Assembly (NCBI GenBank): GCA_039934295.1
Contig: JBDTMN010000005.1
Location: forward strand, 921 to 64,920
From: Candidatus Tayloriibacteriota bacterium
GTDB lineage: Bacteria; Patescibacteriota; Minisyncoccia; Phycocordibacterales; HO2-43-120
Reading direction: 5' to 3'
Length of the DNA stretch: 64,000 nt
Shown here: positions 8,476 through 54,560 of the stretch, piece by piece
How the letters are laid out: every line of letters begins with the position of its first letter
How positions within the stretch are numbered: position 1 is the stretch's first letter
Made by a program: the position numbers and the translations under genes
The notes under the pieces: generated by a model
What the model was told of the DNA's origin: nothing
Database searches by the model: none
Seen by the model: the letters and a program-made list of their open reading frames with translations, nothing else

Positions 8476-9144
8476 TTGGACTATATGAAAAAAATAAGCG
8501 AGTTTTTGCTTGACTTTCTTTTTCCTGCTTCAAAAAAAGCGGCAAGAATCGAGAAAATGACCGCCAGCGATTTTCGAAAGGAAATCGGGGTGGGAGACGC
8601 TATGGGAGCGCGCGGAGATAAGGATATTCACCCGCTTTTTGAATATCGACATCCCCTTGTTCGCGAGGCAATCTGGCAAATAAAATATAAAGGAAACAGA
8701 AAAATAACGAAACTCCTTTCGGAAATTCTCTACGAGGAAATCGTTGCCGAAATCGAAGATCGCGCCCTCTTTGAAAACTTTAAAAACCCGCTTTTAATTC
8801 CGGTGCCAACAAGCAAAAAGCGACTCCAAAAAAGGGGATTCAATCAGATGGAACTTTTGGGCGGGGAGCTCAAGAGTCTCGACGAAAATAGAACATTTGA
8901 ATTTAGTCCTGGCATTTTGATTAAAATAAAAGACACTCTGCCACAGACGCTTCTTAAAGATCGTCGTCTCCGCCTCGGAAATCTCGTCGGCTGTTTCGCC
9001 GTAACAGACGCGCAAAAAATTAAAAATAGAAACATCATTTTGATTGACGATGTGTTGACGACCGGCGCAACTCTCGCCGAAGCAAAACGCGCGCTTATAA
9101 ATGCAGGGGCGAGGAGAGTGATTGCGTTTACACTGGCACATTAG
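8476..9144 (+). CDS. comFC: ComF family protein (phosphoribosyltransferase domain, ComFC-like)
   Basis: C-terminal PRTase motif IILIDDVLTTGATL; 222 aa. Confidence 0.75.
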   Translation: MDYMKKISEFLLDFLFPASKKAARIEKMTASDFRKEIGVGDAMGARGDKDIHPLFEYRHPLVREAIWQIKYKGNRKITKLLSEILYEEIVAEIEDRALFENFKNPLLIPVPTSKKRLQKRGFNQMELLGGELKSLDENRTFEFSPGILIKIKDTLPQTLLKDRRLRLGNLVGCFAVTDAQKIKNRNIILIDDVLTTGATLAEAKRALINAGARRVIAFTLAH

Positions 9145-9239
9145 GGAAAGGTGTTAGGTGTTAGCTATTAGCTGTTAGCTTTTCGAAAGAGAAGAAAAAA
9201 TGGAGAGAAAAAGAAAAATGTGATACATTACGTTCAAAT

Positions 9240-9326
9240 GGAAGGGTGTCAGAGAGGCCTATTGAGCAGCTTTGCTAAAGCTGTAAGGGGTAATTCCCTT
9301 CGAGGGTTCGAATCCCTCCCCTTCCG
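9240..9326 (+). tRNA. tRNA-Ser (anticodon GCU)
   Basis: Hand-folded: 7-bp acceptor GGAAGGG/CCCTTCC, anticodon loop TTGCTAA, long variable arm, T-loop GGGTTCGAATCCC, discriminator G. Confidence 0.75.
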
Positions 9327-9384
9327 CAGCGAAAAATTGTTGCAATTTTGAGCAAGGAAGGGAGAGATGTGCCTACGCACATCT

Positions 9385-9700
9385 CGTGAGGGATTCGAAG
9401 ACCTTCTCCCTTATCCCCCACCACTTTGTTGCAATGTGGTGGGGGATGGGAAAGGTGTACTGGTCGAGTAGCGACCGTTAATCCCTCCCCTTCCGCCAAT
9501 GATTCGCAAGGACAGCCCTGATGCTGTCCGAGCGAATCATCATTGCGTGATTGGGGAGGGATTCGAAGCCCGATTGAGCATTTTTTCGAGCTTCTTAACG
9601 TAGAAAAAATCCAATCGGGGTACTGAAACTGTAAGTTTCGAATCCCTCCACTTTCTTAACCCCGCAGCGTTGCCGAGAATCGTCCCCTTCCGCAATTTTA
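9385..9700. repeat. cluster of degenerate tRNA-Ser 3'-end fragments (TTCGAATCCCTCC(CCTTCCGC)) in both orientations
   Basis: Five or more partial copies at 9385-9407, 9476-9496, 9563-9585, 9638-9655 and 9683-9697. Confidence 0.6.
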
Positions 9701-9784
9701 AAAAATTCTAATCTGACATTTTCAACAATTGCAAAATGGAGGAGAGTGGTCAAAATTTCAATTGATAAACTTTTGAAATAAACT

Positions 9785-10447
9785 ATGCCCAAAATTAAGG
9801 ATATACCAAAATTTGATAGACCTAGAGAGAAACTGGAAAAATATGGTTCAGGAAAATTATCTGATGCTGAACTTTTAGCAATTCTACTTCGAACAGGTAC
9901 GAGAGATTTAAATGTTTTAAAATTAGCTCACAAGATTTTGCAAAAATTTGAAAAAGAAAAATTTGTCAATATAACAATTGATGAATTGAAGACCATTCAT
10001 GGATTAGGTCCAGTAAAGGCTTGTGAGATTATTGCTTGTTTCGAGTTAGGAAAACGTATGTTGAAAGGCAAAAAATCATCAATTTTACTTTCTTCTAAAG
10101 ATGTTTGGGAACGGATGGAAGATATTAGAGGGAGCAAAAAAGAGCATTTTGTAGTTTTTTATTTGGATAGTAGAAACCAAGAAATACAGAGAGAAATTAT
10201 CTCAGTAGGGACTCTCAATGAGAGTTTGGTTCATCCCCGAGAGGTTTTTGAGGGTGCAATCAAAAATAACGCTTCCTCGATTATTATTGCTCATAATCAC
10301 CCTTCAGGAGATTTGGGGCCATCTGAAGCTGATATTGAGATAACAAAAAAATTAATCCATGCTGGAAAAATTCTAGATATCAAGGTTGCTGATCATGTAA
10401 TTGTCTCCAGCTCATCTTTTATGGGTTTTATTGCAAATATCGTATGA
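9785..10447 (+). CDS. radC: RadC-like JAB/MPN domain protein
   Basis: C-terminal JAMM motif HNHPSGD...SEAD plus an N-terminal helix-hairpin-helix region; 220 aa. Confidence 0.8.
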   Translation: MPKIKDIPKFDRPREKLEKYGSGKLSDAELLAILLRTGTRDLNVLKLAHKILQKFEKEKFVNITIDELKTIHGLGPVKACEIIACFELGKRMLKGKKSSILLSSKDVWERMEDIRGSKKEHFVVFYLDSRNQEIQREIISVGTLNESLVHPREVFEGAIKNNASSIIIAHNHPSGDLGPSEADIEITKKLIHAGKILDIKVADHVIVSSSSFMGFIANIV

Positions 10448-10896
10448 AAATAAAAAGTGACAAAAAAGCTAAAGAAGAATTTGCAGAAATTCTTAAAACT
10501 AGAGGTTATTCTGATGTGCGGATAGTAAAGCAACCAGCTGATATTACTGCTATAAAAAATGATACAACATATTTTTTTGAGATTAAAAAAACTTCTGCGA
10601 AGAAGGAGTATTTTGGTGCAGCGACACTTACGGAATGGAGAGCTGCATATGAAAATCCCAATAGTTATTTTTTTGTTATAGCACAAGAGATACCAGAAGG
10701 TTTTAATTTTATTGAGTATACTCCTGATGAATTTGAGAAATTCTCATCTATTCCTCCTTTTAAAATATTTTTCAACATACCTTTAAATGGAAATAACAAA
10801 GTTGAAACAAGAAGGAAAAATAGGTCTGCAATTCAATTTATGAGAGAAAAATTGATAAAATTGGACGAGATATTTTCAACTTTTAAAAATGGCTAA
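10444..10896 (+). CDS. hypothetical protein with a possible PD-(D/E)xK nuclease-like core
   Basis: ADITAIKNDTTYFFEIKKT fits a D...ExK arrangement. Overlaps its neighbours by 4 and 8 bp, which suggests one operon with radC and the endonuclease. Confidence 0.4.
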   Translation: MKIKSDKKAKEEFAEILKTRGYSDVRIVKQPADITAIKNDTTYFFEIKKTSAKKEYFGAATLTEWRAAYENPNSYFFVIAQEIPEGFNFIEYTPDEFEKFSSIPPFKIFFNIPLNGNNKVETRRKNRSAIQFMREKLIKLDEIFSTFKNG

Positions 10897-12286
10897 AATA
10901 TATCAAACAAAAGAACAAGTCTTGGAAAAAGCAGAAACAATTTTGCATAAATCTTTGCGTGAGGTTATTTCCTTAGAATCACTTGGAATTATTGAGACCC
11001 AAATTGGAGAATATGGAATGAAGCGCAAAGGATTTTTGGGTGATTTGATAGAAAAATACTTTTTTGATATTAACCCCGGAAATATTAGTGAGCCAGATTT
11101 TAAAATTGCAGAGGTTGAACTTAAAACTACTCCACTAAAGAAACATGGCAATAAAAAATTAGTTTCGAAGGAAAGATTAGTTTTCTCAATGATTAACTAC
11201 GACACTGTCGTGAATGAAACATGGAAGCTAAGCTCTTTCTTAAAAAAGAACAGGTCATTATTATTGATGTTCTACTTATGGATGGAAAATAGGAGTATTC
11301 TTGATTATGAATTTAAATTTGTTCATCTATTGAATTTGCTAGAAGATATTTCTAGTGAAGATTTTTTTCAAATTCAAAAGGATTGGGAGTATATTGTTTC
11401 AAAAATAAAACGAGGAGAAGCACATCTTTTATCTGAAGGCGACACTTACTATCTCGGTGCTTGTACGAAGGCGGCGAATAGTCGAGTTGTAAGAGATCAA
11501 CCAATGAATCGTATGCCCGCAAAACCCCGTGCATTTTCTTTCAAACAACAATATATAAATTATCTGATCCAAACAAAGCTACTTGGCGAAAAAACAAACA
11601 CAGACTCAATTTTTAAGAAACAGAGACGAATTGAGACTATAGAAGATTTAATTAAGGAAAAGTTTTCTGCGTTTATAGGAAAAACTGACAAAGAAATACT
11701 TAATAAACTTGGCTCAAATCTCGGCACAAAAGCAAAAAGCTATAAGAGATTGATTGTTAATAGGATTCTTGATGTTAATTCAAATAACATCGAAGAGCTA
11801 GAAAAAGCCAATATAACTCTTAAGGTAATAACACTTGAACATAGTGGGACACTTAAAGAATCTATGTCATTCCCTGCATTTGATTACAAAGATTTAGTAA
11901 CTCAAATTTGGAATGATGACGAAGAAGAATCAATGGCTGATTTTCACCTACAACTTGAAACTAAAAAATTCTTGTTTGTTGTGTTTCAAAAACAGAAAGG
12001 AAGTGACGACATAATACTCAAAAAAACTATGTTCTGGAATTTTCCAATGAAAGATATTTCTGAGGCGGAGAACGTTTGGCAAAAAACAATTGATTGTATT
12101 AATGATGGTAGGTACGATAAATTACCAAAACTCAAAGATAGTCATGTGGCACATGTTCGTCCTCATGGAAAAGACTCGACCGATACAATTGCAACACCTC
12201 AAAATACACAGGAAATGAAGCGCTGTTTTTGGCTTAATGCTAAATATATACAACAAGCCATAGAAAACAAAAAAGATCAAGGTTGA
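10889..12286 (+). CDS. Sau3AI/MutH-family restriction endonuclease (candidate GATC-specific type II REase)
   Basis: N-terminal region matches the MutH/Sau3AI catalytic signature, including the EVELKT block that resembles MutH. Length 465 aa is similar to the two-domain Sau3AI; it sits next to a C5 methyltransferase. Confidence 0.55.
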   Translation: MAKIYQTKEQVLEKAETILHKSLREVISLESLGIIETQIGEYGMKRKGFLGDLIEKYFFDINPGNISEPDFKIAEVELKTTPLKKHGNKKLVSKERLVFSMINYDTVVNETWKLSSFLKKNRSLLLMFYLWMENRSILDYEFKFVHLLNLLEDISSEDFFQIQKDWEYIVSKIKRGEAHLLSEGDTYYLGACTKAANSRVVRDQPMNRMPAKPRAFSFKQQYINYLIQTKLLGEKTNTDSIFKKQRRIETIEDLIKEKFSAFIGKTDKEILNKLGSNLGTKAKSYKRLIVNRILDVNSNNIEELEKANITLKVITLEHSGTLKESMSFPAFDYKDLVTQIWNDDEEESMADFHLQLETKKFLFVVFQKQKGSDDIILKKTMFWNFPMKDISEAENVWQKTIDCINDGRYDKLPKLKDSHVAHVRPHGKDSTDTIATPQNTQEMKRCFWLNAKYIQQAIENKKDQG

Positions 12287-12317
12287 TCAATTTGTTGCTA
12301 TTTGCTATAATTACCTC

Positions 12318-13595
12318 ATGAAGAAAATACGAGTTGCTGAATTATTTGCAGGTGTGGGTGGGTTTAGAATTGGCCTGGAATCTGCTGCAAAAAAACAAAA
12401 AAACCTTAAATATGAGGTTGTCTGGAGTAGTCAGTGGGAACCGGGTGCAACCACTCAACACGCATCAGAAATATATGAGTTAAATTTTGGTAAAGATGGA
12501 CATTCAAATGAGGATATCCAAGAGGTCATCGCAAATAAATTTCACGAGATTCAAGATCACGATTTGCTCGTTGGCGGATTCCCTTGTCAGGATTATTCCG
12601 TCGCAAGAACACTAAGCCAAGCTAAAGGATTAGAGGGAAAAAAGGGGGTACTCTGGTGGTCAATTTATAATATCCTCAAAAAAAAAGGGAAAAATGCTCC
12701 CGGTTTTCTTATGTTGGAAAATGTTGACCGTCTTTTAAAATCACCATCTGGCCAGAGAGGTCGTGATTTTGCAGTTATGCTCTCATCTCTTAATAATTTA
12801 GGATACATCGTCGAATGGCGAGTAATAAATGCGGCCGAGTATGGAATGCCTCAAAGAAGAAGAAGAGTCTATATCCTAGGATATAAGAAAGGAACAAATA
12901 TTTACAAAAAAATTAAAGCCGAAAAAAATAAGGAAAAATGGATAAATAATGACGGAGTCATTGCAAAAGTTTTTCCTGTAAAAAATACAATTACCAGCAA
13001 TAACAGATTTTTCTTAGAGAAAGATTTAGTGAGACTATCTAAAAATTTTTCACTGGGTAAATCAACGAAAAGTCCTTTTGAAATCGCAGGCATTATGATT
13101 GACGGAGATGTTTACACACACAGAGTTACTCCTGAGTACAACGGCAACCTTACTACCTTAAGAGACCTTGTTGAGTCTGATGAGAAAAAGATTCCAAAAG
13201 AATTTTTTATTGATACTAAAGATATGCCTATGTGGAAATATCTTAAAGGAGGGAAAAAAGAAGCCCGAAAAAGTAAAAATGGATTCACCTATGATTATTC
13301 TGAGGGTGCTATGGTTTTCCCCGACTCATTAGAAAAACCATCTAGAACTATAGTGACTGGAGAAGGCGGTTCTTCACCTTCAAGATTTAAGCATGTAATA
13401 AAGACAAAATCAGGAAGTCTCCGCAGGTTAATACCGAAGGAGCTTGAAAAATTAAATATGTTTCCAGAGGGTCACACAGAAAAAATGCTCAATGGGAAAC
13501 TGACTCCTGACATAAAACGTGCTTTCATCATGGGTAATGCCCTTGTCGTCGGCGTAATAGAAAAATTGGGAAAATCTTTGGCTATGTTTCTGTAG
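12318..13595 (+). CDS. DNA (cytosine-5)-methyltransferase
   Basis: Motif I FAGVGGFRIG, motif IV GFPCQDYS, motif VI ENV, motif X GNALVV. Confidence 0.85.
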   Translation: MKKIRVAELFAGVGGFRIGLESAAKKQKNLKYEVVWSSQWEPGATTQHASEIYELNFGKDGHSNEDIQEVIANKFHEIQDHDLLVGGFPCQDYSVARTLSQAKGLEGKKGVLWWSIYNILKKKGKNAPGFLMLENVDRLLKSPSGQRGRDFAVMLSSLNNLGYIVEWRVINAAEYGMPQRRRRVYILGYKKGTNIYKKIKAEKNKEKWINNDGVIAKVFPVKNTITSNNRFFLEKDLVRLSKNFSLGKSTKSPFEIAGIMIDGDVYTHRVTPEYNGNLTTLRDLVESDEKKIPKEFFIDTKDMPMWKYLKGGKKEARKSKNGFTYDYSEGAMVFPDSLEKPSRTIVTGEGGSSPSRFKHVIKTKSGSLRRLIPKELEKLNMFPEGHTEKMLNGKLTPDIKRAFIMGNALVVGVIEKLGKSLAMFL

Positions 13596-13959
13596 GAGAT
13601 GAATTTTAAAATAATCTTGATGCTTTGTATAATCTGACAGAGAAGTCCGCCTTCGGCAAGGACCGTCCTTGACATAGATTTGTCGAGCTTGATACTTCTG
13701 ACAACTTTCTCAGCCTATACTCGGCACCTTCAATCATGGAAGAGTAAGCAAAATTAGACCACACTTTTCAAAATAGAAAGGGCACCTTTCTATTACCTTT
13801 CTATTACTGAACGTGCGGTTCAGAATCTTCGTTGGGATTTCGTTCCATATCTACTAACAAAAGTCAGTAAACTTAGGAACGTTTCTTATTAAGTTGTAAG
13901 GTAACTATAGCAAAATACACCTAAAAGAACAGGTTTTTTAGCTTCCGTGAATATAGAAA

Positions 13960-15240
13960 CTAAAGTGATTTTAACCAATCAATGACCTTAATATTAGTTT
14001 CAAGCATTTCGATCACTTCTCTTTGTTTTGGTTCTTTTCCTTTATGCACAATCTCATTTCTTGTCTGATCGTAGAGCGTACACCACTTATTCCAAAGAGG
14101 TTCATCGGCTTCGTATAGAGATGTACTTTTTAGTTCTCTTAAACATTCTTTTAACCTTTCTTTTGTACGCCAATGCTGATCAAGATATTTTACCGCATCA
14201 GGTTCAGAATCTCCTCGTAATAGTAATATTTTGAATAAAAAGTTTTCCAAAAAAATCTCAAGTGCCTGAAATGATTGCACTACTGCAAGAGTGAAATCTT
14301 TGTTATCCAAAGACGTTTGAGCATCTAGTAACAGAAGATCGAAAATCTCAGGTTTTTCTCCCTTTTCAAGCATCTCTTTAATTTTTGTGATCTCATTCTT
14401 AGATCGATTCATTGTGGCAGTCTCAATACCAAAACCTGATCCCAATATGTAAAATCCTTTATTATGTTCTATGAAATAGATTGTATTTATCTCAAGCGTA
14501 CCCAATCTTTGGACAAAGCCATTTCTAGTTACCCCACGATAGCTATCTATCAATTTATTCACTACTGTAAGAGCAGTCTCTTTAACGTCGTCGATAACTT
14601 TTTCTAATTGGTTTCGATTAGCCAATTCTTGTACAGAAGTTGTTTTGTCGAATTGAATATAAAGAGCTGAATATCGGAACGTGCCATTTTGATCTTTCAT
14701 TCTCTCGATATTTCTACCTGTAAAGTCCTGTTCCCATCCATCATCAAAATCAACAGGTACTTTTGGAGTTAAAATTACACTGTTATTAAAATATGTTGTT
14801 TTATCTTCTGAAAAGAAATCAATCTCACTCGATTTTACCGCACCCTCCTGAGCTTTTTTAGTCCATATTTTTCTATGTATCAACAAAGCCTTGATTCCTA
14901 GTTCTGGTAGATCAACCTCTAGTTCATAGTGATTTGGTATATGTAAGCAGTACGGTAGGTGTGCCTCAACAAAAATATTACCGTAATCACAGTCTTTGAG
15001 GGCATCAGGATTATCATACTGAAAAGCCATTTGTGTCGTGTATATCGCGCTTAAAGGAGTAAGTCTTACAATCTGTAAATCTTGTTTGATCTTTTCTCTT
15101 AGATTTTCTTCTGGTGTCTCTGTAAGTTTATCTTTATTTGCGATTAGTGAGAGTTCTTCTTCTGAGGAAGTTTCTCCTACGGTAAAGACACCTTTGATGT
15201 TAATTTCAGTCTTGTTTTTGATTCTAAGCGGGTCTGCCAT
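13960..15240 (-). CDS. hypothetical protein with a C-terminal HEPN-like Rx4-6H motif (candidate abortive-infection or toxin effector)
   Basis: 426 aa. C-terminal helical region contains TRNEIVHKG (R-x4-H). No other recognisable domain; sits in the AT-rich island. Confidence 0.4.
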   Translation of the reverse strand: MADPLRIKNKTEINIKGVFTVGETSSEEELSLIANKDKLTETPEENLREKIKQDLQIVRLTPLSAIYTTQMAFQYDNPDALKDCDYGNIFVEAHLPYCLHIPNHYELEVDLPELGIKALLIHRKIWTKKAQEGAVKSSEIDFFSEDKTTYFNNSVILTPKVPVDFDDGWEQDFTGRNIERMKDQNGTFRYSALYIQFDKTTSVQELANRNQLEKVIDDVKETALTVVNKLIDSYRGVTRNGFVQRLGTLEINTIYFIEHNKGFYILGSGFGIETATMNRSKNEITKIKEMLEKGEKPEIFDLLLLDAQTSLDNKDFTLAVVQSFQALEIFLENFLFKILLLRGDSEPDAVKYLDQHWRTKERLKECLRELKSTSLYEADEPLWNKWCTLYDQTRNEIVHKGKEPKQREVIEMLETNIKVIDWLKSL

Positions 15241-15275
15241 ATAGTTGTATGCCTATTTTAGCAAATATAGGTATT

Positions 15276-15746
15276 TTATATAGGGTCTATATTGTTCTCC
15301 CTCAGTAACCTTTCTAAGTGCTCGATCCGTTGTTCTTGTTGGGTTAGTTGAAAAGCAACCACAGCGCTAGATGAAAACTCGTGAGGGCGTTTTAGCTCCA
15401 AGTATCGCCACGATGATTTTACATCTCCATTCAATAACGCTTGGAAGATTGCTTTGCGAGCAAGCAGTATTGGAGTGGCTTGTAAAAGCTCGATTTTGTT
15501 GCGAAACTCGGGATTATTTTTACAGTATCGATAGAACGAATCTGTCGAAATACCCGCCAAATTACAGGCTTCTTGAGCTGTACCACCTATTGAAGAAACA
15601 TACTGTAATTTCGCAACAACCTCATTTTCGTCTTTCCCGTCAAAGACAGGTCTACCAACGTATCTATTTTTGATCCTTGCTCGATAAGGAGAGAAAGTTA
15701 ATACAACATCACGGACTTTGAGTTTTTGCTTCTGAAATGTAATCAT
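15276..15746 (-). CDS. helix-turn-helix protein (terminase-small-subunit-like or regulator HTH)
   Basis: GGTAQEACNLAGISTDSFYRYCKNN is a typical HTH; 156 aa, immediately upstream of the HEPN-motif gene on the same strand. Confidence 0.45.
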   Translation of the reverse strand: MITFQKQKLKVRDVVLTFSPYRARIKNRYVGRPVFDGKDENEVVAKLQYVSSIGGTAQEACNLAGISTDSFYRYCKNNPEFRNKIELLQATPILLARKAIFQALLNGDVKSSWRYLELKRPHEFSSSAVVAFQLTQQEQRIEHLERLLRENNIDPI

Positions 15747-15847
15747 AGAGATTAAGCAGTTATATCAGCGGTTTCCTTAGATAGTTTAGGTATATAAAAA
15801 TAATTTGATGGCACTACCCAATAGGTTCTAATGTCATCTACTACCCT

Positions 15848-15900
15848 CCGCCCATACAAAAAACGAGCACTCTGGAGGTGCTCGTTTTTTGTATGGGCGG
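15848..15900. terminator. bidirectional intrinsic terminator
   Basis: CCGCCCATACAAAAAACGAGCAC-tctggag-GTGCTCGTTTTTTGTATGGGCGG. A 23-bp stem with A and T runs on both sides, downstream of the large minus-strand gene. Confidence 0.7.
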
Positions 15901-15963
15901 AAGTTTTTAACCGAAGTTCGAACGTTTTTTTAAAAAAATTCGCAACAGAACTATGTAGTCCAC

Positions 15964-18900
15964 TTAAATCCTAAAACTCTCTTTGATAATCCCCTTCTTG
16001 TTAGTCGACACATCCTTGCTCATTATCACAGTATAACTACCATCTGCGTTTTTCTTTTGAATTTCAACGCGAAATTCACCAGGTGGCACCAGACAATAGT
16101 ATCTTCCATACGCATCAGATACGACCGATTTTATTACGGCAAATTTATCCGGAGTATATACCTTTATGATTGCGTACGAGAGAGGTTGACCCGTCCGCGA
16201 ATCAATCACTGTGCCATACTGACGACCCCTAATTCCAAACATATACATCACACACAGAATGATGTAAGCGAATGAGAGAATGAGGTTTAGAGTGGAGAAG
16301 TTGAAAATATTTTCGACAATAGTAAACACCAAACCTGCTCCAAAAAGTATTTCACGTACCAGAGCAAATATTCGCTCATTTTTAGAGTGAAAAATCATCA
16401 GATCTTTGTCATGCTTTGCGAATTCGTTCCAATCAAACCCAACAGGATCTAAAGGAATATTTTTCTTCACAATTTCACCTGAAGAGATGTCAATCATTCC
16501 TCCAAAATACAAATCACCGTAGATTTCATCAAAACCTTTTCCCGACATTCGTTCCGAAGGAAATACACAGTGGGTCTTTTGAGCTTTCAACGTATACTTT
16601 CCGGGAGATAAGAGAAAACCGTATCTCCCGTCAAGGTCGGTGATTGACTCCGCTACTACGTTGCCCGAGATATCGAGTGCCGAAACAATCGCGGGATCAA
16701 GTGGCTGTTTGGTAACACTGTCGTATACCGTCCCCCATGGAGTTATTCTCTTTTTTATTCCAAAAAATATGAGGAGCAATCCCCAAAATCTTCTTAGTTG
16801 CAAAAGTAGTTCCGCAAGTGAATTGAACGACAGAGAACTTGAAACGACAGCGAGAAAAGGCACAATGAGACCGAGTGCTTTGACAACCGTTGCCTCTTTC
16901 GAATTTACAATAGTTTTGGATATACTTGTAGCGTCATCTATGATCCTTCCGACAACTGAAGTAAGACCTGAGACAATCGATACGAAAGACGTATTGCTTC
17001 CTGAAGTCGATATGCCATTGTTACCAGACGTGTTTTTTGTGTTGTCAATATTGTCAACATTATTGTCCACACTAGAATCGAAAGGTCCTGGGTTATTGTC
17101 GTTGGGATTAGTCTGCGTGTCGTTCATATTTGAATCAAGAAGAGGGTCATTCACCGGTAATTTATTTGGCGGTGGCGTCGGAATAATCGGTGGTCTAACT
17201 ACACGAGTAGTATAGTTCTTCTGGAATTCGAGTGGTATAGGTGTGCGGCGCGAAGACGAGCCTCCGGAAGAACCGCTCCCAGTAGAGCTAGGTGGCACAA
17301 CTGGAGGAACCGGACAACTTTCTGTCGCAAACATCACATCCTCTCCATAGGAAAGTCCCACGGTACTTCCGGCATATGCCGCCATGTGATAGGTGGTATC
17401 GCAAATTAAATCAGTAATCGGGGCAGTGAAAGTTCCGGCCGAGAAATCTCCCGATTCAGTTGTGGTTGAGGTGTAGGAAGCAGTAAGACCATATACGATA
17501 CCTCTCACATCTGGAATGACATCTCCTGTTGCCGTAATCGTTCCATTACCCGTAGCGGTAGTTTGGGTAATAGATGAAACTGCTTGAGTTGTAACGGTAG
17601 GGGCGAAAACGGCAATAGTGGTGGTCGAGAGTATGGCTCCAGTTGACGTGCCAGTAGAATTAACAGCATACGCTCGGAAGTAGTAGAGGGTGTTCGGAGT
17701 AAGACCGGTGAGATTTTCGGAGAATGATGCAGTTCCGATTTGAGCGCCCAAGGTTGAGGTGGCAATTACCGTCGAGAGGTCTGCTGACGTGCCATATGCA
17801 AAACCGCTTTCAGTTGCATCCTCTCCGCCGGTATCGGTGATGACTCCGTTTAAGGTCGCAGTAGTTTGAGTGACGGAAGAAGCAGCTTGGGTAGTGAGGA
17901 AGGAACCAGAAGGAGCGAGCGTGGCAGTCGAAAGAATGGAACCATACGAAGTTCCAGAAGGGTTTATGGCATACGCGCGAAAGTAGTAGGTGGTGTTCTG
18001 TTGTAGACCGGTTATATTTTGAAGGAATGAGGCTGTGCCAGTTTGAGAGCCCAAGGTTGAGGTGGCAATCACCGTCGAGAGGTCTGCTGACGTGCCATAT
18101 GCAAAACCGCTTTCAGTTGCATCGCCACCACTACCAGTAGCGGTTATTGTTCCGTTAAAGGTTATTGAAGATATAGTTATTGCAGTGGGGGGAGAAGTCG
18201 TAACATGCATCAAATCAACAAAAGTTACAGCCCCTAAAGAATCAGTGTAATTTAGTACGTCTGAAGCTGTGGCCGTACTCGTGAATGCTCCATTCAAAAA
18301 TGTGATACCTAAATTGGATATACTATTAGCCACAGCGTGACTTGAAGCAGTACCGGTAAATGTAAGAGTTGCCGTAGTACCAGCGCCGTTTACCGTCATG
18401 AGAGGAGTGAGACCGGCCGGAGCATTGCTGAGAGAGTAATCAGTATTTAAAGTGAGCGTTGAACCAGCATGAGTAAATAGGTCATTTGTAAGAGTAGCTA
18501 TGCGACTTCCAGAGACGATACCGTCATCAGCGCCGGTTTCGGTGAAAGAACCGGAGTATGAGGTAATTTTAGGTTCCGCAAATTTGTATACAATAGGTGG
18601 GTGATTGCTGTTGATACCAGCATCATTAAATATTACAAATGGAGTGTCATTGTGATCTATAGCCAAAGCAATAAAGGTTACGGCTCCAACGGAAAAACCT
18701 GAAGTGCCGACAGTGTCCCACGAGGAACCACTCCATTTTTTTACCACAATTTTGTCAGCAGGAATTGTGGTAGAATCAGCATATGCTATATATGGAGTAC
18801 CTAATGAATCCGTAGCGATATTCACACTAGATGCTACTCCATCAGAAAAACCGCGTGTCCCGATAAGATTCCAGGTTGCTCCATTATATTTATATACGGT

Positions 18901-19818
18901 AGCTTTTCCGCTATAAGGCGCTGGGAGATCAGAGTACCCTACATATGGCAATATACCCGTAGAATCAAGAGCTAATATTTTTTGAGCCTGTACACCGAAA
19001 CCTGAAATACCAGTACTTCCAATGGGGACATATTCCCAATTTAGCCCATTTAATTTTTTTACTACAGCTCTATTTCCTCCACCCACACCGGTATCTTCAT
19101 ATGCAAGATAGGGAACATTAGAAGAATTTATTTTAATTGCTATTTTGAATGCTGAATCAACCGAAATTGTAAATGGAGCCGTAAAAGGACTAGCACCACC
19201 GACATACAGCCAAGCAGAACCGTTCCATTTTCGAACTACAGTCTTATAGTTAGATGCGTCAACAAGATCACTATATGCTATATATACAAGACCTGTTGAA
19301 TCAATGGCGATAGATGGCTCACTTTGTAGATACCACTGACTTAAGCAAGCGGTGCCTTCATATACCCAATTTACTCCATCGAATTTTTTAACGCTTATGC
19401 CAAATTGTCCTTGAGTAGGACAATGTTGATCTCTAAACGCAACATATGGAACGCCAGAAGGACTGAGAGCCAGACGTGAGTAAAGAGCGCCAACGCCACC
19501 ATTGATATCTGCACTGCCCACTAAAGTCCACGACGAACCATTCCATTTTTTTAAATAACTTTTGCCGGTATCATAATATACGACATATGGTATATTTTGG
19601 GAATCAAAGACTATATCCTCCCAGGCTCCTCCATGTGGAGGAGTAAATTCTGATATTGAACCACTACCAACGATAGTCCATTGAGTAACGGCTAGTGCAT
19701 TCTGGGCAATAGAAAAACTTACAATAACTGTAAAAAGCGCAAGGGCATATTTAAAGTTTTTACTATTTCGTATTTTTGACATAAAACAATTAATGGTAAC
19801 TACCTGTATTATTGCCAT
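15964..19818 (-). CDS. giant secreted surface protein (beta-propeller-like repeats, FN3-like domains, low-complexity linker, multi-TM region, two carboxypeptidase-regulatory-like domains)
   Basis: ORF track 15964..19830 with a TTG start; the ATG MAIIQ... lies at 19816-19818 and MSKIRN... is another possible start. A signal peptide is present. Repeated ~50-aa units contain PYVAY...KW/KYNGSSW. Three or more ...TYYFRAYA...G.S.G modules are present. The C-terminus has GTVYDS...DGRYGF and GTVIDS...YGRYY blocks. Confidence 0.7.
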   Translation of the reverse strand: MAIIQVVTINCFMSKIRNSKNFKYALALFTVIVSFSIAQNALAVTQWTIVGSGSISEFTPPHGGAWEDIVFDSQNIPYVVYYDTGKSYLKKWNGSSWTLVGSADINGGVGALYSRLALSPSGVPYVAFRDQHCPTQGQFGISVKKFDGVNWVYEGTACLSQWYLQSEPSIAIDSTGLVYIAYSDLVDASNYKTVVRKWNGSAWLYVGGASPFTAPFTISVDSAFKIAIKINSSNVPYLAYEDTGVGGGNRAVVKKLNGLNWEYVPIGSTGISGFGVQAQKILALDSTGILPYVGYSDLPAPYSGKATVYKYNGATWNLIGTRGFSDGVASSVNIATDSLGTPYIAYADSTTIPADKIVVKKWSGSSWDTVGTSGFSVGAVTFIALAIDHNDTPFVIFNDAGINSNHPPIVYKFAEPKITSYSGSFTETGADDGIVSGSRIATLTNDLFTHAGSTLTLNTDYSLSNAPAGLTPLMTVNGAGTTATLTFTGTASSHAVANSISNLGITFLNGAFTSTATASDVLNYTDSLGAVTFVDLMHVTTSPPTAITISSITFNGTITATGSGGDATESGFAYGTSADLSTVIATSTLGSQTGTASFLQNITGLQQNTTYYFRAYAINPSGTSYGSILSTATLAPSGSFLTTQAASSVTQTTATLNGVITDTGGEDATESGFAYGTSADLSTVIATSTLGAQIGTASFSENLTGLTPNTLYYFRAYAVNSTGTSTGAILSTTTIAVFAPTVTTQAVSSITQTTATGNGTITATGDVIPDVRGIVYGLTASYTSTTTESGDFSAGTFTAPITDLICDTTYHMAAYAGSTVGLSYGEDVMFATESCPVPPVVPPSSTGSGSSGGSSSRRTPIPLEFQKNYTTRVVRPPIIPTPPPNKLPVNDPLLDSNMNDTQTNPNDNNPGPFDSSVDNNVDNIDNTKNTSGNNGISTSGSNTSFVSIVSGLTSVVGRIIDDATSISKTIVNSKEATVVKALGLIVPFLAVVSSSLSFNSLAELLLQLRRFWGLLLIFFGIKKRITPWGTVYDSVTKQPLDPAIVSALDISGNVVAESITDLDGRYGFLLSPGKYTLKAQKTHCVFPSERMSGKGFDEIYGDLYFGGMIDISSGEIVKKNIPLDPVGFDWNEFAKHDKDLMIFHSKNERIFALVREILFGAGLVFTIVENIFNFSTLNLILSFAYIILCVMYMFGIRGRQYGTVIDSRTGQPLSYAIIKVYTPDKFAVIKSVVSDAYGRYYCLVPPGEFRVEIQKKNADGSYTVIMSKDVSTNKKGIIKESFRI

Positions 19819-20357
19819 AGAATACCACAAGCTCGCAACTCACGCACACTACTCTAATAACAAAATTTAAACTAGGATCAAACTCATGAGGTGCTATTTT
19901 CTGGAATTTCAAGAATATGCAGATTGCCTCTATAAATTTTTTCTCAAGTGTCACACAAGACCGCCCCCACCAAAGCGCACTAGGCGCTAGGAAACTAGGC
20001 AGTAGGCTCTAGCAGAAATGCTAATGCCTAAAGCCTAATGAATTTCGGTGGGGAAGGAAGGAGAGGATGACGCCAGGTCAGCATGTCCCTCTGATATCCT
20101 ATGCTGGCGGCGAAGCAAAACCAAAAATTTCCTTTCCATTTTTTGTCGGCCCCCCACACTCACCCGCCGAGGAAAATAAGAAAGGTAAGGAAAATTTTTG
20201 GGTTTTGCATTGCGACCGTAGGGGCAGACGAGGCGCGCAGATTAATAGCAATCATCAGGATTTAGTTCGAAATACATTCGAACTTCGTTCAGTAGATACC
20301 GCCCAATTTTGAAATTGAAAATTGGGACGGGAGATGGAAGAAAATAATTTTTATATT

Positions 20358-23000
20358 CTAGATATCCGACAAGATAAACGTCCTCGTTATCGGTCCGAAG
20401 AATCCTACGGGAGGCGTGATGCCATGAGCTAACTGGAACTTGGAGAGAGCGGAGCGGGTAAGAGCTCCGAAGTAGGTGGTCTCATTGCCTGGAGAACCAA
20501 AGCCCGAAAGAGCAAGAGTGAATCCTTTGGAATTTAAGTATTGCTGAAGGAGTTTTACATCGCTTCCCACTGATCCCGAACCAAGATTACGGGTGAAGGA
20601 AAGCGGGGTGAGAACAGGCGGGAGTCCTATTCCCGGAGTAATTTCCACAACTGGAGCGATTCCCGACGTATTTGGACTACACATGTATCCTGAAGGATTC
20701 TCCGGAAACGGAATCAGGGTATATCCTTCGGCGCAGACTGGAAGAGCAGATGATGGTGAAGGTAATTGAGAAATGAAGTTCGCACTGCGACCGCCACTTG
20801 AGCTTCTCCTTCTTGAGGGGGTGGGAGTGGGGGAAGGTTCTTCTGTAGGACAAGCAGTTGTAGAAAATGAGATGATAGAGCCATAAGCGGTGGCTACAGG
20901 ATTTGTAGCATAAGCTCTCACGAAATATTCTGTATCACAGGTGAGGCCGGTCATGGTGCTAGTCCAGGGGCCACCGATGGCGAAACCATCTGTGGTTTTA
21001 GTGGAAAGAGCAGTGGTGGGATTTATTACTGTATCCCAGACGAGACCACTAACTGTCACTGTTGCTCCACCATTTGAAGATATAGTACCGCCACCAACTG
21101 CAGTGGTTTGAGTGATGGAAGTGACTGGGATTGTAGTGGTTACAGTGGGGACAACCACGCTACTAACCGTAACTGTAATTGGTGAAGATGTTGTGGTATT
21201 TCCAACATTGTCTCTTGCAACTGCAGTCAAAACATGGTCTCCGTCTGAAACAGAAGTCGCGTCCCAAATGATTCCATATGTAGAAGTAGTGTCTTCTATA
21301 TCCAGATTTATACTATCTAGCTTGAATTGAACACCCACAACACCAAAATCATCAGAAGCATCGGCCGTAATGGAGACAGATGCACCAGAAACAACTGCTA
21401 GATCAAGTGGAGCTGTGATTGAAATACTCGGCGCCGTTGTATCAATCACAATCGCCTTGTTGGCGGCTAAGTTGGTAGCTGGAATGAAGCTCGACATTGC
21501 ATTACCAGAGAGGTCGGCAATAGTGCCAGAGATTGAGTTGGTGTCTAAGTCGAGAGATGTGTCTCCAGCTTGTACGGTGTAATTACAAGTGCCGGTAGTA
21601 GAACCAGAGACCGTGAAGGTACATGTCCGGTCAGTGGCGCCAGTTTCGAGAGTGACTGTGACGCTACCAGTGGAAGTAACCGTCTCGGAGAAAGTGACGT
21701 CAATATCGATCACCTCTCCTGTCTTGTAGGTACCGTTTGCTTTGTCAGAGGAAACGTTGGTGATGGTGGGAATAGTTGGATCAATGGTTGAAACTGAAGC
21801 TTTGTTAGGGCCGTTTGCGGCATCCCAATATCCTAAATATGGATTATTATTTGAATCTAAATCTAAAGATGTGAAAGTACCTATAGATGATGTAAAACCG
21901 GCACTACCCACAGCTTCCCAAGATGAACCGTTATATTTCATGACAGTTGTCCTTAAACCATTTGCTCCATCGGAAAATCCTACATAAGGTACATCTAAAG
22001 AATCGAAGGCGAGAGATGGCCACTCTGATCCAGTGGCTCCTCCATTAAAACCAGCGCTACCAACGTTACTCCACGAACCACTGGTAAATTTCATGACAGT
22101 AATTCTATTGCTGGTTCCAACATCTTTATATGCTACATATGGAATGTTAGTGGAATCTAACTTGATTGAAGTGCTAAATACCTGTCCAGCCGAAAATGCA
22201 GGACTACCTACGACTACCCAAGATGAGCCATTATATTTCATGACTGTAGCTTTATTACCCCTGCCTGAAAAATGGTCACTGAAGGCAACATACGGTACAC
22301 CAGTAGAATCAAGAGCAAGAGAAACTTGGTCACCTTGCCCATCTGAAAAACCATTTCCAGATGAAGCACCTACTGTGGACCAGGAAGTACCATTAAATTT
22401 CTCAAGGGCAACCTTACCGCCGTCTGGAAAATAATCCATATGCGCTACATATATATTATTTGAAGAATCAATGGCAATAGAGGGGTAGTCCGCTTGTTGG
22501 CTGGTGGCAGCCACAGAGCCCACAGTTACCCACGATGAACCGTCAAATTTTTTAACCACAGCTTTATAGCTATTTCCACCAGTTCCGCCATCTTGCATTG
22601 CAACGTATGGGTTACCGCTAGAATCAAATGCCATAGTAGGAGTATATGAATCATTTCCTGAAATCCCAGTGCTACCCGAAGGCAGGGTTACCCAAGATGA
22701 ACCATTATATTTCAAAACCATTATTTTATTACTATTTCCGCTATCCCTATATGCAACATAAGGAGTATTAGTAGAGTTTAAAACAAGGTTAAGATAACTG
22801 GGTGTACCAGCTGAGAAGCCGAGACTCCCCACATTTGTCCATCCTATCGCTAGAACGTTCTGAACGTTTTGAACGTAGACCCCCGCAACTACCAAAAAAG
22901 CAAATGTCGGAAACAAAACAAAACTGTACCTGCGTTTTTTTAGCATATTTCGCATTTTGGACACAAAACAATTCATGGTAACTACCTGTATTATTGCCAT
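20358..23000 (-). CDS. giant secreted surface protein, paralog 2 (beta-propeller-like repeats, Ig/FN3-like domains, C-terminal peptidoglycan-binding domain)
   Basis: Same conserved N-terminus MAIIQVVTMNCF... Repeated PYVAY.D...K(Y/F)NGSSW units. The C-terminus VKLLQQYLNSKGF...GALTRSALSKFQLAHGITPPVGFFGPITR matches a PG_binding_1-type module. Confidence 0.7.
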   Translation of the reverse strand: MAIIQVVTMNCFVSKMRNMLKKRRYSFVLFPTFAFLVVAGVYVQNVQNVLAIGWTNVGSLGFSAGTPSYLNLVLNSTNTPYVAYRDSGNSNKIMVLKYNGSSWVTLPSGSTGISGNDSYTPTMAFDSSGNPYVAMQDGGTGGNSYKAVVKKFDGSSWVTVGSVAATSQQADYPSIAIDSSNNIYVAHMDYFPDGGKVALEKFNGTSWSTVGASSGNGFSDGQGDQVSLALDSTGVPYVAFSDHFSGRGNKATVMKYNGSSWVVVGSPAFSAGQVFSTSIKLDSTNIPYVAYKDVGTSNRITVMKFTSGSWSNVGSAGFNGGATGSEWPSLAFDSLDVPYVGFSDGANGLRTTVMKYNGSSWEAVGSAGFTSSIGTFTSLDLDSNNNPYLGYWDAANGPNKASVSTIDPTIPTITNVSSDKANGTYKTGEVIDIDVTFSETVTSTGSVTVTLETGATDRTCTFTVSGSTTGTCNYTVQAGDTSLDLDTNSISGTIADLSGNAMSSFIPATNLAANKAIVIDTTAPSISITAPLDLAVVSGASVSITADASDDFGVVGVQFKLDSINLDIEDTTSTYGIIWDATSVSDGDHVLTAVARDNVGNTTTSSPITVTVSSVVVPTVTTTIPVTSITQTTAVGGGTISSNGGATVTVSGLVWDTVINPTTALSTKTTDGFAIGGPWTSTMTGLTCDTEYFVRAYATNPVATAYGSIISFSTTACPTEEPSPTPTPSRRRSSSGGRSANFISQLPSPSSALPVCAEGYTLIPFPENPSGYMCSPNTSGIAPVVEITPGIGLPPVLTPLSFTRNLGSGSVGSDVKLLQQYLNSKGFTLALSGFGSPGNETTYFGALTRSALSKFQLAHGITPPVGFFGPITRTFILSDI

Positions 23001-23186
23001 AGAATACCACAAGCTAGCAACTCACGCACACTACTCTAATAAAGTTTGGCCTCGCCTAATACCCCGCCGAGGTACTCCAAGGGGACAGCTTGCTCTCGGG
23101 ATAGGACGAGACAAACCTTTATTTCGCAGTTGTATTTGCAATGAGTAGTCTGGTATTATATAAATCTATAAGCTATTTAAAATGCC

Positions 23187-23528
23187 ATGGAAACACAATC
23201 ATATTCACAATCAGAAGTTCCGGAATTATCACTTGAAGCATTTCAGCAAGAGATTGCAAAAATGAAAGAGGAAGAAGAGAAAGGAAAAAAAACGGGGAAA
23301 CCGTCCCACTTTGCGAATGGCCCAGAAGGGGAAGAAATGAAAGCTTCAGAACTTACTTCCGCAGATCTAGCAATGTGGCAAAGGATAAAAGAGTTTCCAA
23401 AGCAAGGAATCATCACTCAAGATGATTTCAAAACCTATAGCGAAGAAGCTATGAAAGATGGAAATTTTTCACGGGGACGATTTGTCGGTTTTCTTGCAAA
23501 TCAAGTTCAGAAAATTTGGTTCGAGTAG
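23187..23528 (+). CDS. hypothetical protein
   Basis: 113-aa ORF with no recognisable motif. Its 5' end, including the upstream 7 nt, is duplicated at 23651..23730. Confidence 0.4.
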   Translation: METQSYSQSEVPELSLEAFQQEIAKMKEEEEKGKKTGKPSHFANGPEGEEMKASELTSADLAMWQRIKEFPKQGIITQDDFKTYSEEAMKDGNFSRGRFVGFLANQVQKIWFE

Positions 23529-23650
23529 TAAAATAAAAAATCGAATCACTCCTCTTCCGCAATTCACTGTGGTAAAAAAGATTGCTTTCTTTTTTAAAGC
23601 TACATAGTAATGATTCGCTTTATATACTATATATCCATTTACTATATTAA

Positions 23651-30158: not shown

Positions 30159-30226
30159 ACAGCGCTTGCTTGTTGATTTGTATTCTTTCGACAGAAGGTC
30201 GATTTTAGTGAAAACATATTTTAGAG

Positions 30227-30246
30227 GTGCGCGCGGAGGGACTCGG
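30227..30246 (-). repeat. 20-nt duplicate of the tRNA-Ile 3' end (att-like remnant)
   Basis: GGTGCGCGCGGAGGGACTCG is identical to 30342..30361. Confidence 0.6.
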
Positions 30247-30343
30247 CCACCACGTAGCCAGGTACTTTTCAATCTCGCAGACTCGATAATGAAAAGTCTT
30301 TCGAGTCCCTCACAGAAGCCAAGCAGTTGGCTTCTTCTTGCGG

Positions 30344-30416
30344 TGCGCGCGGAGGGACTCGAACCCCCGACCGATCGAGTATAAGTCGACTGCTCTACCA
30401 ACTGAGCTACGCGCGC
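30344..30416 (-). tRNA. tRNA-Ile (anticodon UAU)
   Basis: Hand-folded cloverleaf: acceptor GCGCGCG/CGCGCGC, D-stem GCTC/GAGC, anticodon loop CTTATAC, T-loop TTCGAGT, discriminator A. No encoded CCA. Confidence 0.65.
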
Positions 30417-34245: not shown

Positions 34246-34650
34246 GGGGATGATCGGTCTAGACAGCTGATTTACTCTCAAATATGCAAAGTAGAGCACC
34301 GTTACCTCTTAAATCTGACGGAAATTCTAAGCGCAAAAAACTTAGTTACAAGAGCAAAATTAGCCGTTTCTCCCTATTTTAGGGCAAACGACTTTGCTTT
34401 CGCTTACGCTTTAGCCTAAGCGACGCTTCATATCCCAACTTCCGATAGGGATACGTAAGTGTAATATATTCGGAATGGGATAGATGGTCGTCTCGCTCTC
34501 TATCCGAAACTAAGAGACTCGATCACTACATATTTTGTTTGCTTTAAGCGCAGTGATTTAAATCTGCTTCGGCAGGAAAAAACAGACTACACTTTGTAGA
34601 AATATTAGAGAGCGTCAGTTGCACCCGAGTTCGATTCTCGGCATCTCCAC
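34246..34650 (+). ncRNA. ssrA: tmRNA (ssrA), tag peptide ANDFAFAYALA
   Basis: 5' GGGGATG pairs with 3' CATCTCC+A. T-arm GAGTTCGATTCTC. Internal reading frame GCAAACGACTTTGCTTTCGCTTACGCTTTAGCCTAA. Directly follows smpB. Confidence 0.8.
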
Positions 34651-34669
34651 AAAAATAACGAGCTCTCTT

Positions 34670-34786
34670 AGAGCGACTATATTTTTGTAGGACTCAGTTT
34701 TCGTTTCGAAAACGGAGTATCACAAAAGAGCGACTATATTTTTGTAGGACTCAGTTTTTGTCTTCAAAAACTGAATATCACAAAAT
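34670..34786 (+). repeat. two tandem ~57-nt repeats, each with a hairpin
   Basis: AGAGCGACTATATTTTTGTAGGACTCAGTTTT(c/t)G...CACAAA occurs twice. Confidence 0.7.
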
Positions 34787-41727: not shown

Positions 41728-41957
41728 TCGCAGCAAAGCCTGCTCCTTAGAAACCCACGGTTTCTAAACCCTGTTTTTCGAAACTCAAAACAGGTCTTCC
41801 TTACAGGAACAGTACACCTTTTGGACAATTCAGAAATTGTCTCAAAAGGTCTTGCGAAGCTCCATGTGTTCGCTTCTCACCGCCACGGGAAAACTACAGT
41901 TTTCCCGACCCCTTTCGCCCGCCCCTCCCCAGTTGTATATTCAACTTAAATTATCCA

Positions 41958-46965: not shown

Positions 46966-47078
<113 letters not shown>

Positions 47079-54194: not shown

Positions 54195-54560
<366 letters not shown>

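Follow-up and report, generated by a model that had tools for sequence, protein, structure and literature searches.

A RadC-headed Sau3AI-type restriction module and a family of tRNA-matched structured elements in an acquired island of Candidatus Taylorbacteria

In this report, we focus on a 64,000-nucleotide stretch of DNA (hereafter the window) from a Candidatus Taylorbacteria bacterium (Paceibacteria, candidate phyla radiation, CPR; contig JBDTMN010000005.1 of GenBank assembly GCA_039934295.1, positions 921 to 64,920, forward strand) and show that its positions 9328-23561 are a horizontally acquired island at the 3' end of a tRNA-Ser(GCT) gene. The tRNA-proximal portion of this island is an AT-rich defence block encoding a restriction-modification (RM) module in which RadC comes first and is followed by a variable slot, a Sau3AI-family restriction endonuclease (REase) and a C5 cytosine DNA methyltransferase (MTase). 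Between the tRNA and this module lie two tandem copies of a structured element, here named E, whose paired arms copy the end of the tRNA. A tRNA island bearing an RM system is ordinary; what is new is the RadC-headed Sau3AI module with its variable slot, which has swept across the CPR, and the E family. We found no description of RadC-coupled Sau3AI systems, or of E, in the literature that was searched. That all parts of the picture hold together—an acquired 14.2-kb island, a RadC-headed Sau3AI-type module, and E as an attachment site for a recombinase encoded outside the island—is in our judgment probable.

Results

An acquired island at the 3' end of tRNA-Ser(GCT)

The window belongs to a metagenome-assembled genome, and NCBI lists a 100% identical protein under the locus tag ABI430_02095. 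The island is anchored on tRNA-Ser(GCT) at 9240-9327 (+; ARAGORN, Rfam tRNA 48.8 bits), which ends in ...CCGCA and does not encode CCA. The locus was compared with 71 related loci from Paceibacteria-type CPR bacteria, whose PilM proteins are 49-59% identical to that of the window. The pil operon and ComF are conserved, and ComF and tRNA-Ser(GCT) are neighbors in the same orientation in ~20 of the 71. Despite this synteny, RadC, a 150-aa protein (p150), the REase, the MTase, a 426-aa HEPN protein, a 156-aa protein (p156) and a 1288-aa protein are found at this locus in none of the 71 relatives, while an 884-aa surface protein has a match in a single one, covering parts of its length. In one relative (L005), the order is ComF-tRNA-Ser-E-E-154-aa open reading frame (ORF)-cupredoxin-RecG, with none of the island genes, and past the 154-aa ORF come homologs of the window genes at 26.4 and 28 kb. 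Composition shifts as well: GC content drops from ~0.44 to 0.31-0.38 across 9.5-16 kb, and the GC content at third codon positions (GC3) of every ORF in 9785-23528 lies 1.7-4.3 standard deviations (SD) under the core mean, the next gene standing at +1.0 SD. At the distal side, a direct repeat of the tRNA-Ser 3' end occupies 23539-23561 (AATCGAATCACTCCTCTTCCGCA, 19/23 identical; 0.00 expected and 0 hits in 50 shuffles). This repeat ends a decayed E remnant (23443-23562, +), a weak covariance-model match (7.6 bits) with no fold left (z = -1.2). Because the distal repeat and the return of GC3 to core values fall together, the island is delimited as 9328-23561 (14.2 kb).

These results bear on a first-pass annotation, made from the letters alone, which had described an AT-rich insertion without integrase that ended at a strong bidirectional terminator at ~15848-15900. 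The insertion, the shift in composition (by a GC profile) and the lack of an integrase are all borne out, and so is the hairpin itself (15847-15901, terminator-like both ways), with its 25-bp perfect stem, symmetric A and T tracts, and fold of -45.3 kcal/mol (z = -11). However, this hairpin closes the AT-rich sub-block and not the island, which runs on with foreign GC3 to the 23539-23561 repeat. The hairpin is not a copy of E. A scan of the inner module borders for a further attachment (att) site or another E, even with the covariance model run with filters off, turned up nothing but the 23.44-23.56 kb remnant. Family profile scans identified no integrase or recombinase in any island ORF, nor in 10 further window ORFs, and no recombinase family is found near the E arrays of relatives among the best 25 of 59 families drawn from 47 ORFs. 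The repeated integrase-mediated insertions that had been proposed at first pass are plausible as a scenario but are not supported by the evidence in hand. Exact-protein matches of ComF, PilM and the REase, sought as a way to strain variants, returned the source contig only.

A mobile RadC-headed restriction module

The four genes of the module are tightly packed on the + strand. RadC (9785-10447) overlaps the ORF for p150 (10444-10896) by 4 bp, which in turn overlaps the REase gene (10889-12286) by 8 bp, and a 31-bp gap precedes the MTase gene (12318-13595). RadC, with a helix-hairpin-helix (HhH) N terminus and a JAB domain, matches Pfam RadC (PF04002, 4e-41) and UPF0758_N (PF20582) and scores 235.5 bits against the NCBIfam equivalog PRK00024 (cutoff 180). 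Its JAMM motif HNHPSGDLGPSEAD is intact, with the HxHx7Sx2D metal site, and the protein is a regular member of the RadC (UPF0758) family. The 465-aa REase scores 433.8 bits against the NCBIfam Sau3AI equivalog NF040973 (cutoff 300) over residues 5-458. Its N-terminal domain matches Pfam MutH (9e-27), the Sau3AI structure in PDB (4pxg) matches across both domains (E = 3e-53), and residues 248-408 match the Sau3AI C-terminal domain structures 2reu and 7xm0 at 4e-13. The catalytic block D70...E77-L-K79 (EVELK) aligns with Sau3AI and MutH, the crystal 4pxg reading A-L-K at this place. The MTase (PF00145, 2.5e-59; TIGR00675; PADLOC MTase_II, 536 bits) aligns end to end, at 41-47% identity, with the dcm partners of Sau3AI-family REases from Firmicutes plasmids. 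The pair thus has what defines a Sau3AI-family RM system, namely a MutH-like domain with D, E and K, a C-terminal effector-site domain and an adjacent cognate C5 MTase. At first pass, four overlapping or abutting genes, a Sau3AI/MutH-like REase with an EVELKT catalytic block and its C5 MTase partner had all been proposed from translations, and each of these points is confirmed, the catalytic D70, E77 and K79 being kept on alignment with Sau3AI and MutH.

GATC under-representation, suggested earlier as a check, is clear. GATC is the most depleted of the 16 palindromic 4-mers in the window (116 observed versus 230 expected, a ratio of 0.50), which fits a long exposure to GATC restriction. Family membership and this depletion suggest that the REase would recognize GATC and that the MTase would protect it as GAT5mC. 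A promoter-like site precedes the MTase gene at 12283-12311 (+), where a consensus match reads TTGATC-17-TATAAT with TG. Its position between the two genes suggests separate expression of the MTase, which probably has its own promoter. The -35 hexamer TTGATC overlaps a GATC site, an arrangement that would allow methylation-dependent autoregulation.

The gene in the slot, p150, is a small PD-(D/E)xK nuclease-like protein of Hjc/RecU-like fold class, with the fold and the catalytic D, E and K of this superfamily (invariant D33, E46 and K48). It does not reach the Hjc family profile in Pfam (16.3 bits, under the cutoff of 21.1), its best family is NOV_C/DUF3883 (26.1 bits), and its phrog Holliday junction resolvase match has E = 0.0065; neither its sequence family nor its closest fold is that of Vsr. 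When p150 is compared with archaeal Hjc and bacterial RecU resolvases and with small PD-(D/E)xK REases (NhoI and the BisI family; PMC11347163), identity is only 7-21%, and p150 differs by its own invariant motifs YFGAATLTEW and PPFK and by a C-terminal helix. The p150 family is small, with 350 representatives among 1.84 billion proteins. Some distant homologs adjoin the same MTase family together with a MutH/Sau3AI-like gene, though the genes are arranged differently (L110, L143, L149, L150). Other distant homologs, many of them gut metagenomic, recurrently have a ~195-aa HD-domain-like gene 39-95 nt upstream (L090, L092, L094, L097, L100, L101, L112, L141, L145, L151), which suggests a different two-gene unit in that branch.

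The association of RadC and a small nuclease with the RM pair, which had been singled out at first pass as a nonstandard layout, recurs in unrelated genomes. RadC-p150-REase-MTase, with the same overlaps, is found on the unrelated contigs L074, L075, L084, L087 and L088 (66-93% protein identity). In L074, module proteins are 87-93% identical to those of the window and the MTase 69%, whereas RecG is only 34% identical; the 49-59% identity of PilM among same-family relatives is likewise far lower than that of RadC, of which more than 120 clusters at 78-92% identity are spread across the CPR (under the source names Parcubacteria, Paceibacterota, Vogelbacteria, Nomurabacteria, Yonathbacteria, Magasanikbacteria and Peregrinibacteria). 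Four close RadC homologs were sampled for their context irrespective of p150, and all four head a RadC-(X)-Sau3AI-like-C5 MTase module, in which the slot X is an OLD-family ATPase-nuclease (L169/170, L172/173) or is absent (L171, L176-178); in L176-178 a small AHJR-like ORF lies directly upstream of the module. The GC content of the module is under that of its flanks in 10/10 loci. A more distant version, RadC-173aa-AIPR-MTase-p150, is present in two different neighborhoods. Scans of viral contigs gave no match to p150 or the REase, which argues that this is not a phage gene set. Judging from these gene orders and identities, the module is horizontally mobile with a fixed order RadC-(variable slot)-REase-MTase, in which RadC is the conserved, co-transferred head gene and the RM pair the constant core, with a swappable nuclease slot between them. 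Two of these loci also have a 73-aa Xre-type helix-turn-helix (HTH) gene that ends a few bases before RadC (L074 4376-4597, L084 925-1146); it could encode a controller (C) protein and is absent from the window module.

Element E, a conserved structure with tRNA-matched arms

Five partial copies of the tRNA-Ser 3' end, in both orientations, lie downstream of the gene (9388-9399, -; 9480-9496, +, 17/17; 9553-9570, -, 17/18; 9637-9657, +; 9677-9693, +). They are far above chance: the 12-mer TTCGAATCCCTC, with at most one mismatch, occurs 6 times in the window versus 0.7 expected, a number reached in no shuffle, with four matches within 9307-9648 and two at tRNA-Ile. These copies had already been noticed at first pass and taken for a graveyard of fragments. 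This is not what they are. E is present here twice in tandem, and the five are the arms that pair within these two copies, together with one further tRNA end that closes the series.

The first copy, E1 (9328-9498, +; covariance model R1, 107.8 bits), folds at -81.5 kcal/mol (z = -8.2), and its minimum free energy fold reproduces the following anatomy: a leader hairpin, the 5' strand of helix P1 (9356-9362, GGAAGGG), hairpin 1 (9364-9385), the 5' strand of helix P2 (9388-9395), hairpin 2 (9399-9457), hairpin 3 (9461-9477), and the 3' strands of P2 and P1 (9480-9494), which copy the tRNA 3' end, followed by GCCA. The second copy, E2 (9499-9659, +; covariance-model match 9529-9659, 98 bits; fold z = -4.9), has a hairpin 2/hairpin 3 scaffold homologous to that of elements in L005, L038 and L169, and is followed by the extra tRNA-end copy at 9677-9693. 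This architecture is common to at least 10 species, over a length of ~130-170 nt, and in many relatives a direct repeat of the tRNA-Ser 3' end is found 130-190 nt downstream. The general order is a leader hairpin, the complement of the acceptor 3' strand, hairpin 1, GTGAGGGATTCGAA (the complement of the T-loop/T-stem 3' strand), a long variable hairpin 2, GTAC, hairpin 3 with a UGUAA loop, and the last ~20 nt of the tRNA. RNAalifold recovers these helices. In a set of 24 distinct E sequences, 92% of cells are paired versus 66% in shuffles, compensatory (double) changes are seen in 24/26 pairs, and the covariation score is 0.48 versus 0.13 in shuffles (0/500 reach it) and 0.05-0.11 in slid controls; fold z-scores range from -4.8 to -8.2. 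G-T is no more common than A-C (14 versus 16 among 523 paired cells) and the two strands fold equally well, which leans to a constraint on DNA rather than RNA. Rfam 15 has no match at E<=1 across the elements in 8500-16500 except chance sub-threshold hits, nor any match to E in L169, L163 and L008, and ARAGORN calls no tRNA on E.

With the covariance model, E turns up downstream of Ser-GCT, Ser-ACT, Ile-TAT, Ile-GAT, Glu and Gln tRNAs, in every case on the strand of the tRNA. The arms match each tRNA (GGAGACG/CGTCTCC, GGAAGGG/CCCTTCC, GGAGAGA/TCTCTCC, and GACCCTA for tRNA-Glu), and the hairpin 2-GTAC-hairpin 3 scaffold is near-identical between elements at different tRNAs. The window itself has another E, after tRNA-Ile(TAT), at 30225-30338 (-; tRNA and E together, 30225-30416; 70.6 bits), with a direct copy of the tRNA-Ile 3' end at 30226-30248 and an inverted copy at ~30296-30311; its scaffold resembles that of the E after tRNA-Gln in L163. 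E is also found at junctions between tRNAs and cargo. In L169, it sits at tRNA-Glu directly before a RadC-OLD-REase-MTase module, and in L163, at tRNA-Gln directly before a 76% homolog of the 426-aa HEPN protein. In L008 (234-1930), also anchored on tRNA-Ser, the order is E, promoter-like box, NUDIX-like ORF, E, promoter-like box, GrpB ORF and a partial E, so that three copies at 728-729 bp spacing bracket two unrelated single-gene units; the first two show 97% identity over 181 nt, and all three share a 68-nt core without a single difference. In L034, E occurs as a tandem pair of near-identical units. That E is structurally conserved, that its arms match the tRNAs and that it sits where a tRNA meets cargo are direct observations. 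E is found at only ~30% of the tRNA-Ser genes examined, and a trend (no more than that) separates tRNAs with an encoded CCA, 1/9 of which have E, from those without, 10/26 of which do. Two E-like scaffolds without tRNA arms and without adjacent tRNA, each made of hairpin 1, AAGAC, hairpin 2, GTGTAC and hairpin 3 with a TGTAA loop, lie elsewhere in the window (41784-41882, -; 59041-59136, +). The former lies ~190 nt ahead of a sugar-transferase gene, with a terminator-like hairpin after it, and the pair could point to an RNA role of the scaffold.

Several side observations concern E and its tRNAs. The layout of L008 resembles integron cassettes. In L063 (5291-5640), the E after tRNA-Ser(GCT) is interrupted by a ~110-nt insertion that separates its P2 strand from hairpin 2. 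Near tRNA-Ser(GCT), ARAGORN calls another serine tRNA, whose anticodon ACT (A34) is unusual, in 18 related genomes (L004, L009, L013, L015, L017, L018, L024, L028, L036, L038, L040, L041, L058, L063-L065, L070, L071), some of which also have E.

Other features of the island and window

Beyond the module, the island has further cargo on the - strand. The 426-aa protein (13960-15240) with a C-terminal HEPN region and an RNEIVH motif is a candidate stand-alone defence or abortive-infection gene. It scores 19.7 bits (1e-3) against HEPN_Apea, under the cutoff of 24.4, and 1.4e-5 against the PADLOC Csx1/Csm6 HEPN profile, and its 93 homologs are mostly from the CPR, with sources naming homologs "HEPN domain-containing". 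Next to it, p156 (15276-15746) is like a phage terminase small subunit with an HTH (phrog_4102, 8.8e-11) and has no Pfam or NCBIfam family; the idea that it is a conserved partner of the HEPN protein was rejected on homolog contexts. The 1288-aa secreted or membrane repeat protein (15964-19830), which is fn3/Ig-like and CarboxypepD_reg-like, is island cargo by GC3 and by absence in relatives. The 884-aa surface protein (20358-23012), with Big_7 and PG_binding_1, is island cargo too.

Elsewhere in the window, the 23S rRNA gene (-) is split, with model positions 15-2044 at 53416-57189 and 2103-2284 at 53178-53358, and a group I intron lies at 54311-54588; the 5S rRNA is at 46974-47081 (-). This leaves 47.1-53.2 kb as the place where the 3' third of the 23S gene must be, among large insertions, which are known in the rRNA genes of CPR bacteria. 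Immediately downstream of the tmRNA gene (34246-34650), at ~34668-34785 (+), a ~58-nt unit with a hairpin, AGAGCGACTATATTTTTGTAGGACTCAGTTTT...AAAAC...TATCACAAAA, occurs twice in tandem, and a strong terminator comes next.

Discussion

The picture that we favor combines two proposals. For the module, the REase and MTase would work as an ordinary type II system with GATC as its site. RadC, an HhH and JAB protein, would be a partner of the REase in acting on DNA. Incoming or cut DNA may be what it processes or protects, or RadC may hold restriction in check during establishment of the module in a new host. Between these two genes, the slot takes p150, an OLD-family nuclease or nothing, and its proteins would contribute a second nuclease activity. 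For E, the inverted and direct copies of the last ~20 nt of the tRNA pair and rebuild its acceptor/T-stem helix around a constant three-hairpin scaffold. E would then be a recombination (attachment) site that captures cargo beside tRNA genes through a recombinase encoded elsewhere, and it may, by analogy with known folded sites, act as a folded single strand mimicking the end of the tRNA gene. A bolder version, in which E is a programmable attachment site—with exchangeable arms that fold, probably as single-stranded DNA (ssDNA) acquired or made by these naturally competent CPR cells, into a replica of the 3' end of the targeted tRNA gene, and with integrase-less cassettes such as the HEPN gene or the RadC-Sau3AI module inserted by an outside recombinase—and RadC is a true restriction subunit, strikes us as unlikely.

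The main rival for E is that it is a structured, tRNA-like 3' RNA, derived from the tRNA or from transcripts of cassettes, which would serve RNase P, RNase Z or the CCA-adding enzyme as a signal for processing or stabilization, its junction position being secondary. Plant mitochondrial t-elements and mascRNA are tRNA-like processing or stabilizing signals of this sort. The fold is very stable and strongly covarying, E is always on the tRNA's strand, its helix reproduces the acceptor/T-stem stack, often ending in GCCA, with a T-loop-like UGUAA hairpin, and armless E-like scaffolds also occur at 41.8 and 59.0 kb, where no tRNA is adjacent, the first of the two being upstream of a gene. Against this, G-U pairing is infrequent (2.7%) and does not exceed the level of A-C mismatches, and the reverse strand folds equally well. 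There is no promoter room in front of E, and in several loci terminator-like hairpins are visible by eye between tRNA and E, although a consensus scan did not call them. Moreover, E is present at about 30% of the tRNA-Ser genes examined and matches no Rfam family. We place the RNA explanation somewhat on the unlikely side. We think it very unlikely that the tRNA-like pieces are instead functionless, decaying att scars of several integrase insertions and excisions, with an island of only 9.7-15.8 kb. Islands formed by tyrosine integrases classically leave direct repeats of tRNA 3' ends, the terminal copy in E often ends in GCCA where the adjacent tRNA has GCA, as if an original 3' end had been displaced, and composition sets off the AT-rich block more sharply than it does 16-23.5 kb. 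However, scars would not retain the order of hairpins with compensatory changes across species, would not hold an inverted copy and an acceptor-strand complement that covary with each tRNA, and would not recur as near-identical units (L008, L034), while the distal repeat and the GC3 step set the end of the island at 23.56 kb. The part of this explanation that invokes random debris is already largely refuted.

For the module, it might be argued that RadC is an ordinary housekeeping radC that stands by chance beside an inserted RM system, since the protein is canonical, full-length and over the NCBIfam equivalog cutoff and its gene lies near competence genes (ComF, pil operon). Yet its GC3 is 3.6 SD under the core, none of the 71 relatives has it at this locus, it overlaps p150 by 4 bp, and it is 78-92% identical across CPR lineages, where it heads the same RM module in differing neighborhoods. 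Locus absence, GC3 and module contexts already contradict the idea, to which we give almost no credence. A distinctly unlikely alternative, but one with more in its favor, concerns p150, which could be a Vsr analogue that nicks T:G mismatches arising from deamination of 5-methylcytosine within the target of the MTase and is thus linked to the C5 MTase and not to the REase. Every RM-linked p150 adjoins the same C5 MTase family (58-79% identity) whatever the gene order, including M-R-p150 (L110) and R<-M<- ->p150 (L143, L149), where R is the REase and M the MTase gene, and an AIPR protein stands in place of the REase in L076-78; the lack of Vsr family and fold matches was noted above.

Several observations weigh against the picture that we favor. 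A recombinase that could have carried out the integration was found neither in the island nor in the 10 further window ORFs, nor among the best 25 of 59 families beside E arrays. A comparison of empty and filled sites (L024 against L032 and L028) was not clean, L024 retaining part of the E leader followed by other cargo. In L169 and L163, E lies between tRNA and cargo with no distal repeat within 8 kb, so the link between cargo and E could be that of a shared hot spot. The equal folding of both strands of E, while it leans to DNA, leaves room for an RNA role. For the module, the RadC gene of L074 (4601-5263) has one in-frame TGA at a conserved Gly codon (HGLGP to H*LGP) while the REase and MTase genes are intact, which suggests that RadC is dispensable for restriction itself. 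This TGA may reflect a pseudogene or a sequencing error; recoding under code 25 was rejected because the other genes on the contig are intact under code 11. Most of the distant p150 homologs are solitary, beside an HD-domain gene or in other contexts.

These findings matter in two ways. RadC is a very widespread bacterial protein without established function, called "a misleading name" (PMC5512222, PMC3239186). Its JAB domain has a predicted nucleic-acid-processing role, with recorded fusions to the anti-restriction module ArdC (PMC3239186, PMC5512222), and the protein is listed as competence-induced in Firmicutes (Attaiech 2008, as cited in PMC5512222). Finding RadC as the conserved first gene of a restriction operon, one that has swept through CPR lineages at 80-90% identity, makes its function testable, and if it is a restriction subunit, this would be the first defined role for RadC. 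As for E, apparent tRNA-fragment scars can be conserved, covarying structures with arms matched to different tRNAs. A role of E as a recombination site would account for the way in which reduced CPR genomes gain defence genes beside tRNAs without island-borne integrases; if E is an RNA, it would be a new family of tRNA mimics. Either way, annotation pipelines that treat such repeats as debris would miss it.

Comparison with known systems

The module is closest to Sau3AI/LlaKR2I-type RM systems, with which it shares an REase matching both the catalytic and the allosteric domains and an adjacent full-length C5 MTase related to the plasmid dcm partners. The classical systems of Firmicutes plasmids consist of two genes, divergent or convergent, whereas the island operon is co-directional, headed by RadC, equipped with a swappable nuclease slot and spread across CPR lineages at 77-92% identity. 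Another parallel is the DpnII cassette of Streptococcus pneumoniae, a GATC RM system whose third gene, dpnA, serves single-stranded DNA as it enters the cell. Both are GATC-type RM cassettes with an extra conserved gene tied to the biology of DNA uptake. They differ in that DpnA is an ssDNA methyltransferase and RadC an HhH-JAB protein.

The island as a whole resembles tRNA-anchored islands formed by tandem accretion of integrative and conjugative elements (ICE) and cis-mobilizable elements (CIME), with its position at a tRNA 3' end, distal direct repeat, foreign composition, absence in relatives, variable cargo and tandem elements. It departs from the integrase type in that no integrase of its own was found and that the repeat unit, far from being a bare core site, is a structured element of 130-170 nt in which the target also appears inverted. 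Integron attC sites and the attP(+) hairpin of CTX phage, the latter used by XerCD, are folded single-strand attachment sites that imitate their targets. E differs from them in that its target is the end of a tRNA gene instead of attI or dif, in its extra hairpin in one arm and its conserved internal scaffold, and in having no recombinase such as IntI or XerCD nearby. The likeness lies in the two inverted target-like sequences ~75-110 nt apart, which can fold into a target-mimicking duplex, in a structure conserved over sequence, in the position of E between units of a promoter plus a single gene, as in the flanked cassettes of L008, and in a recombinase outside the cassette. If E is indeed an attachment site, it would define an integron-like or CTX-like capture system anchored on tRNAs.

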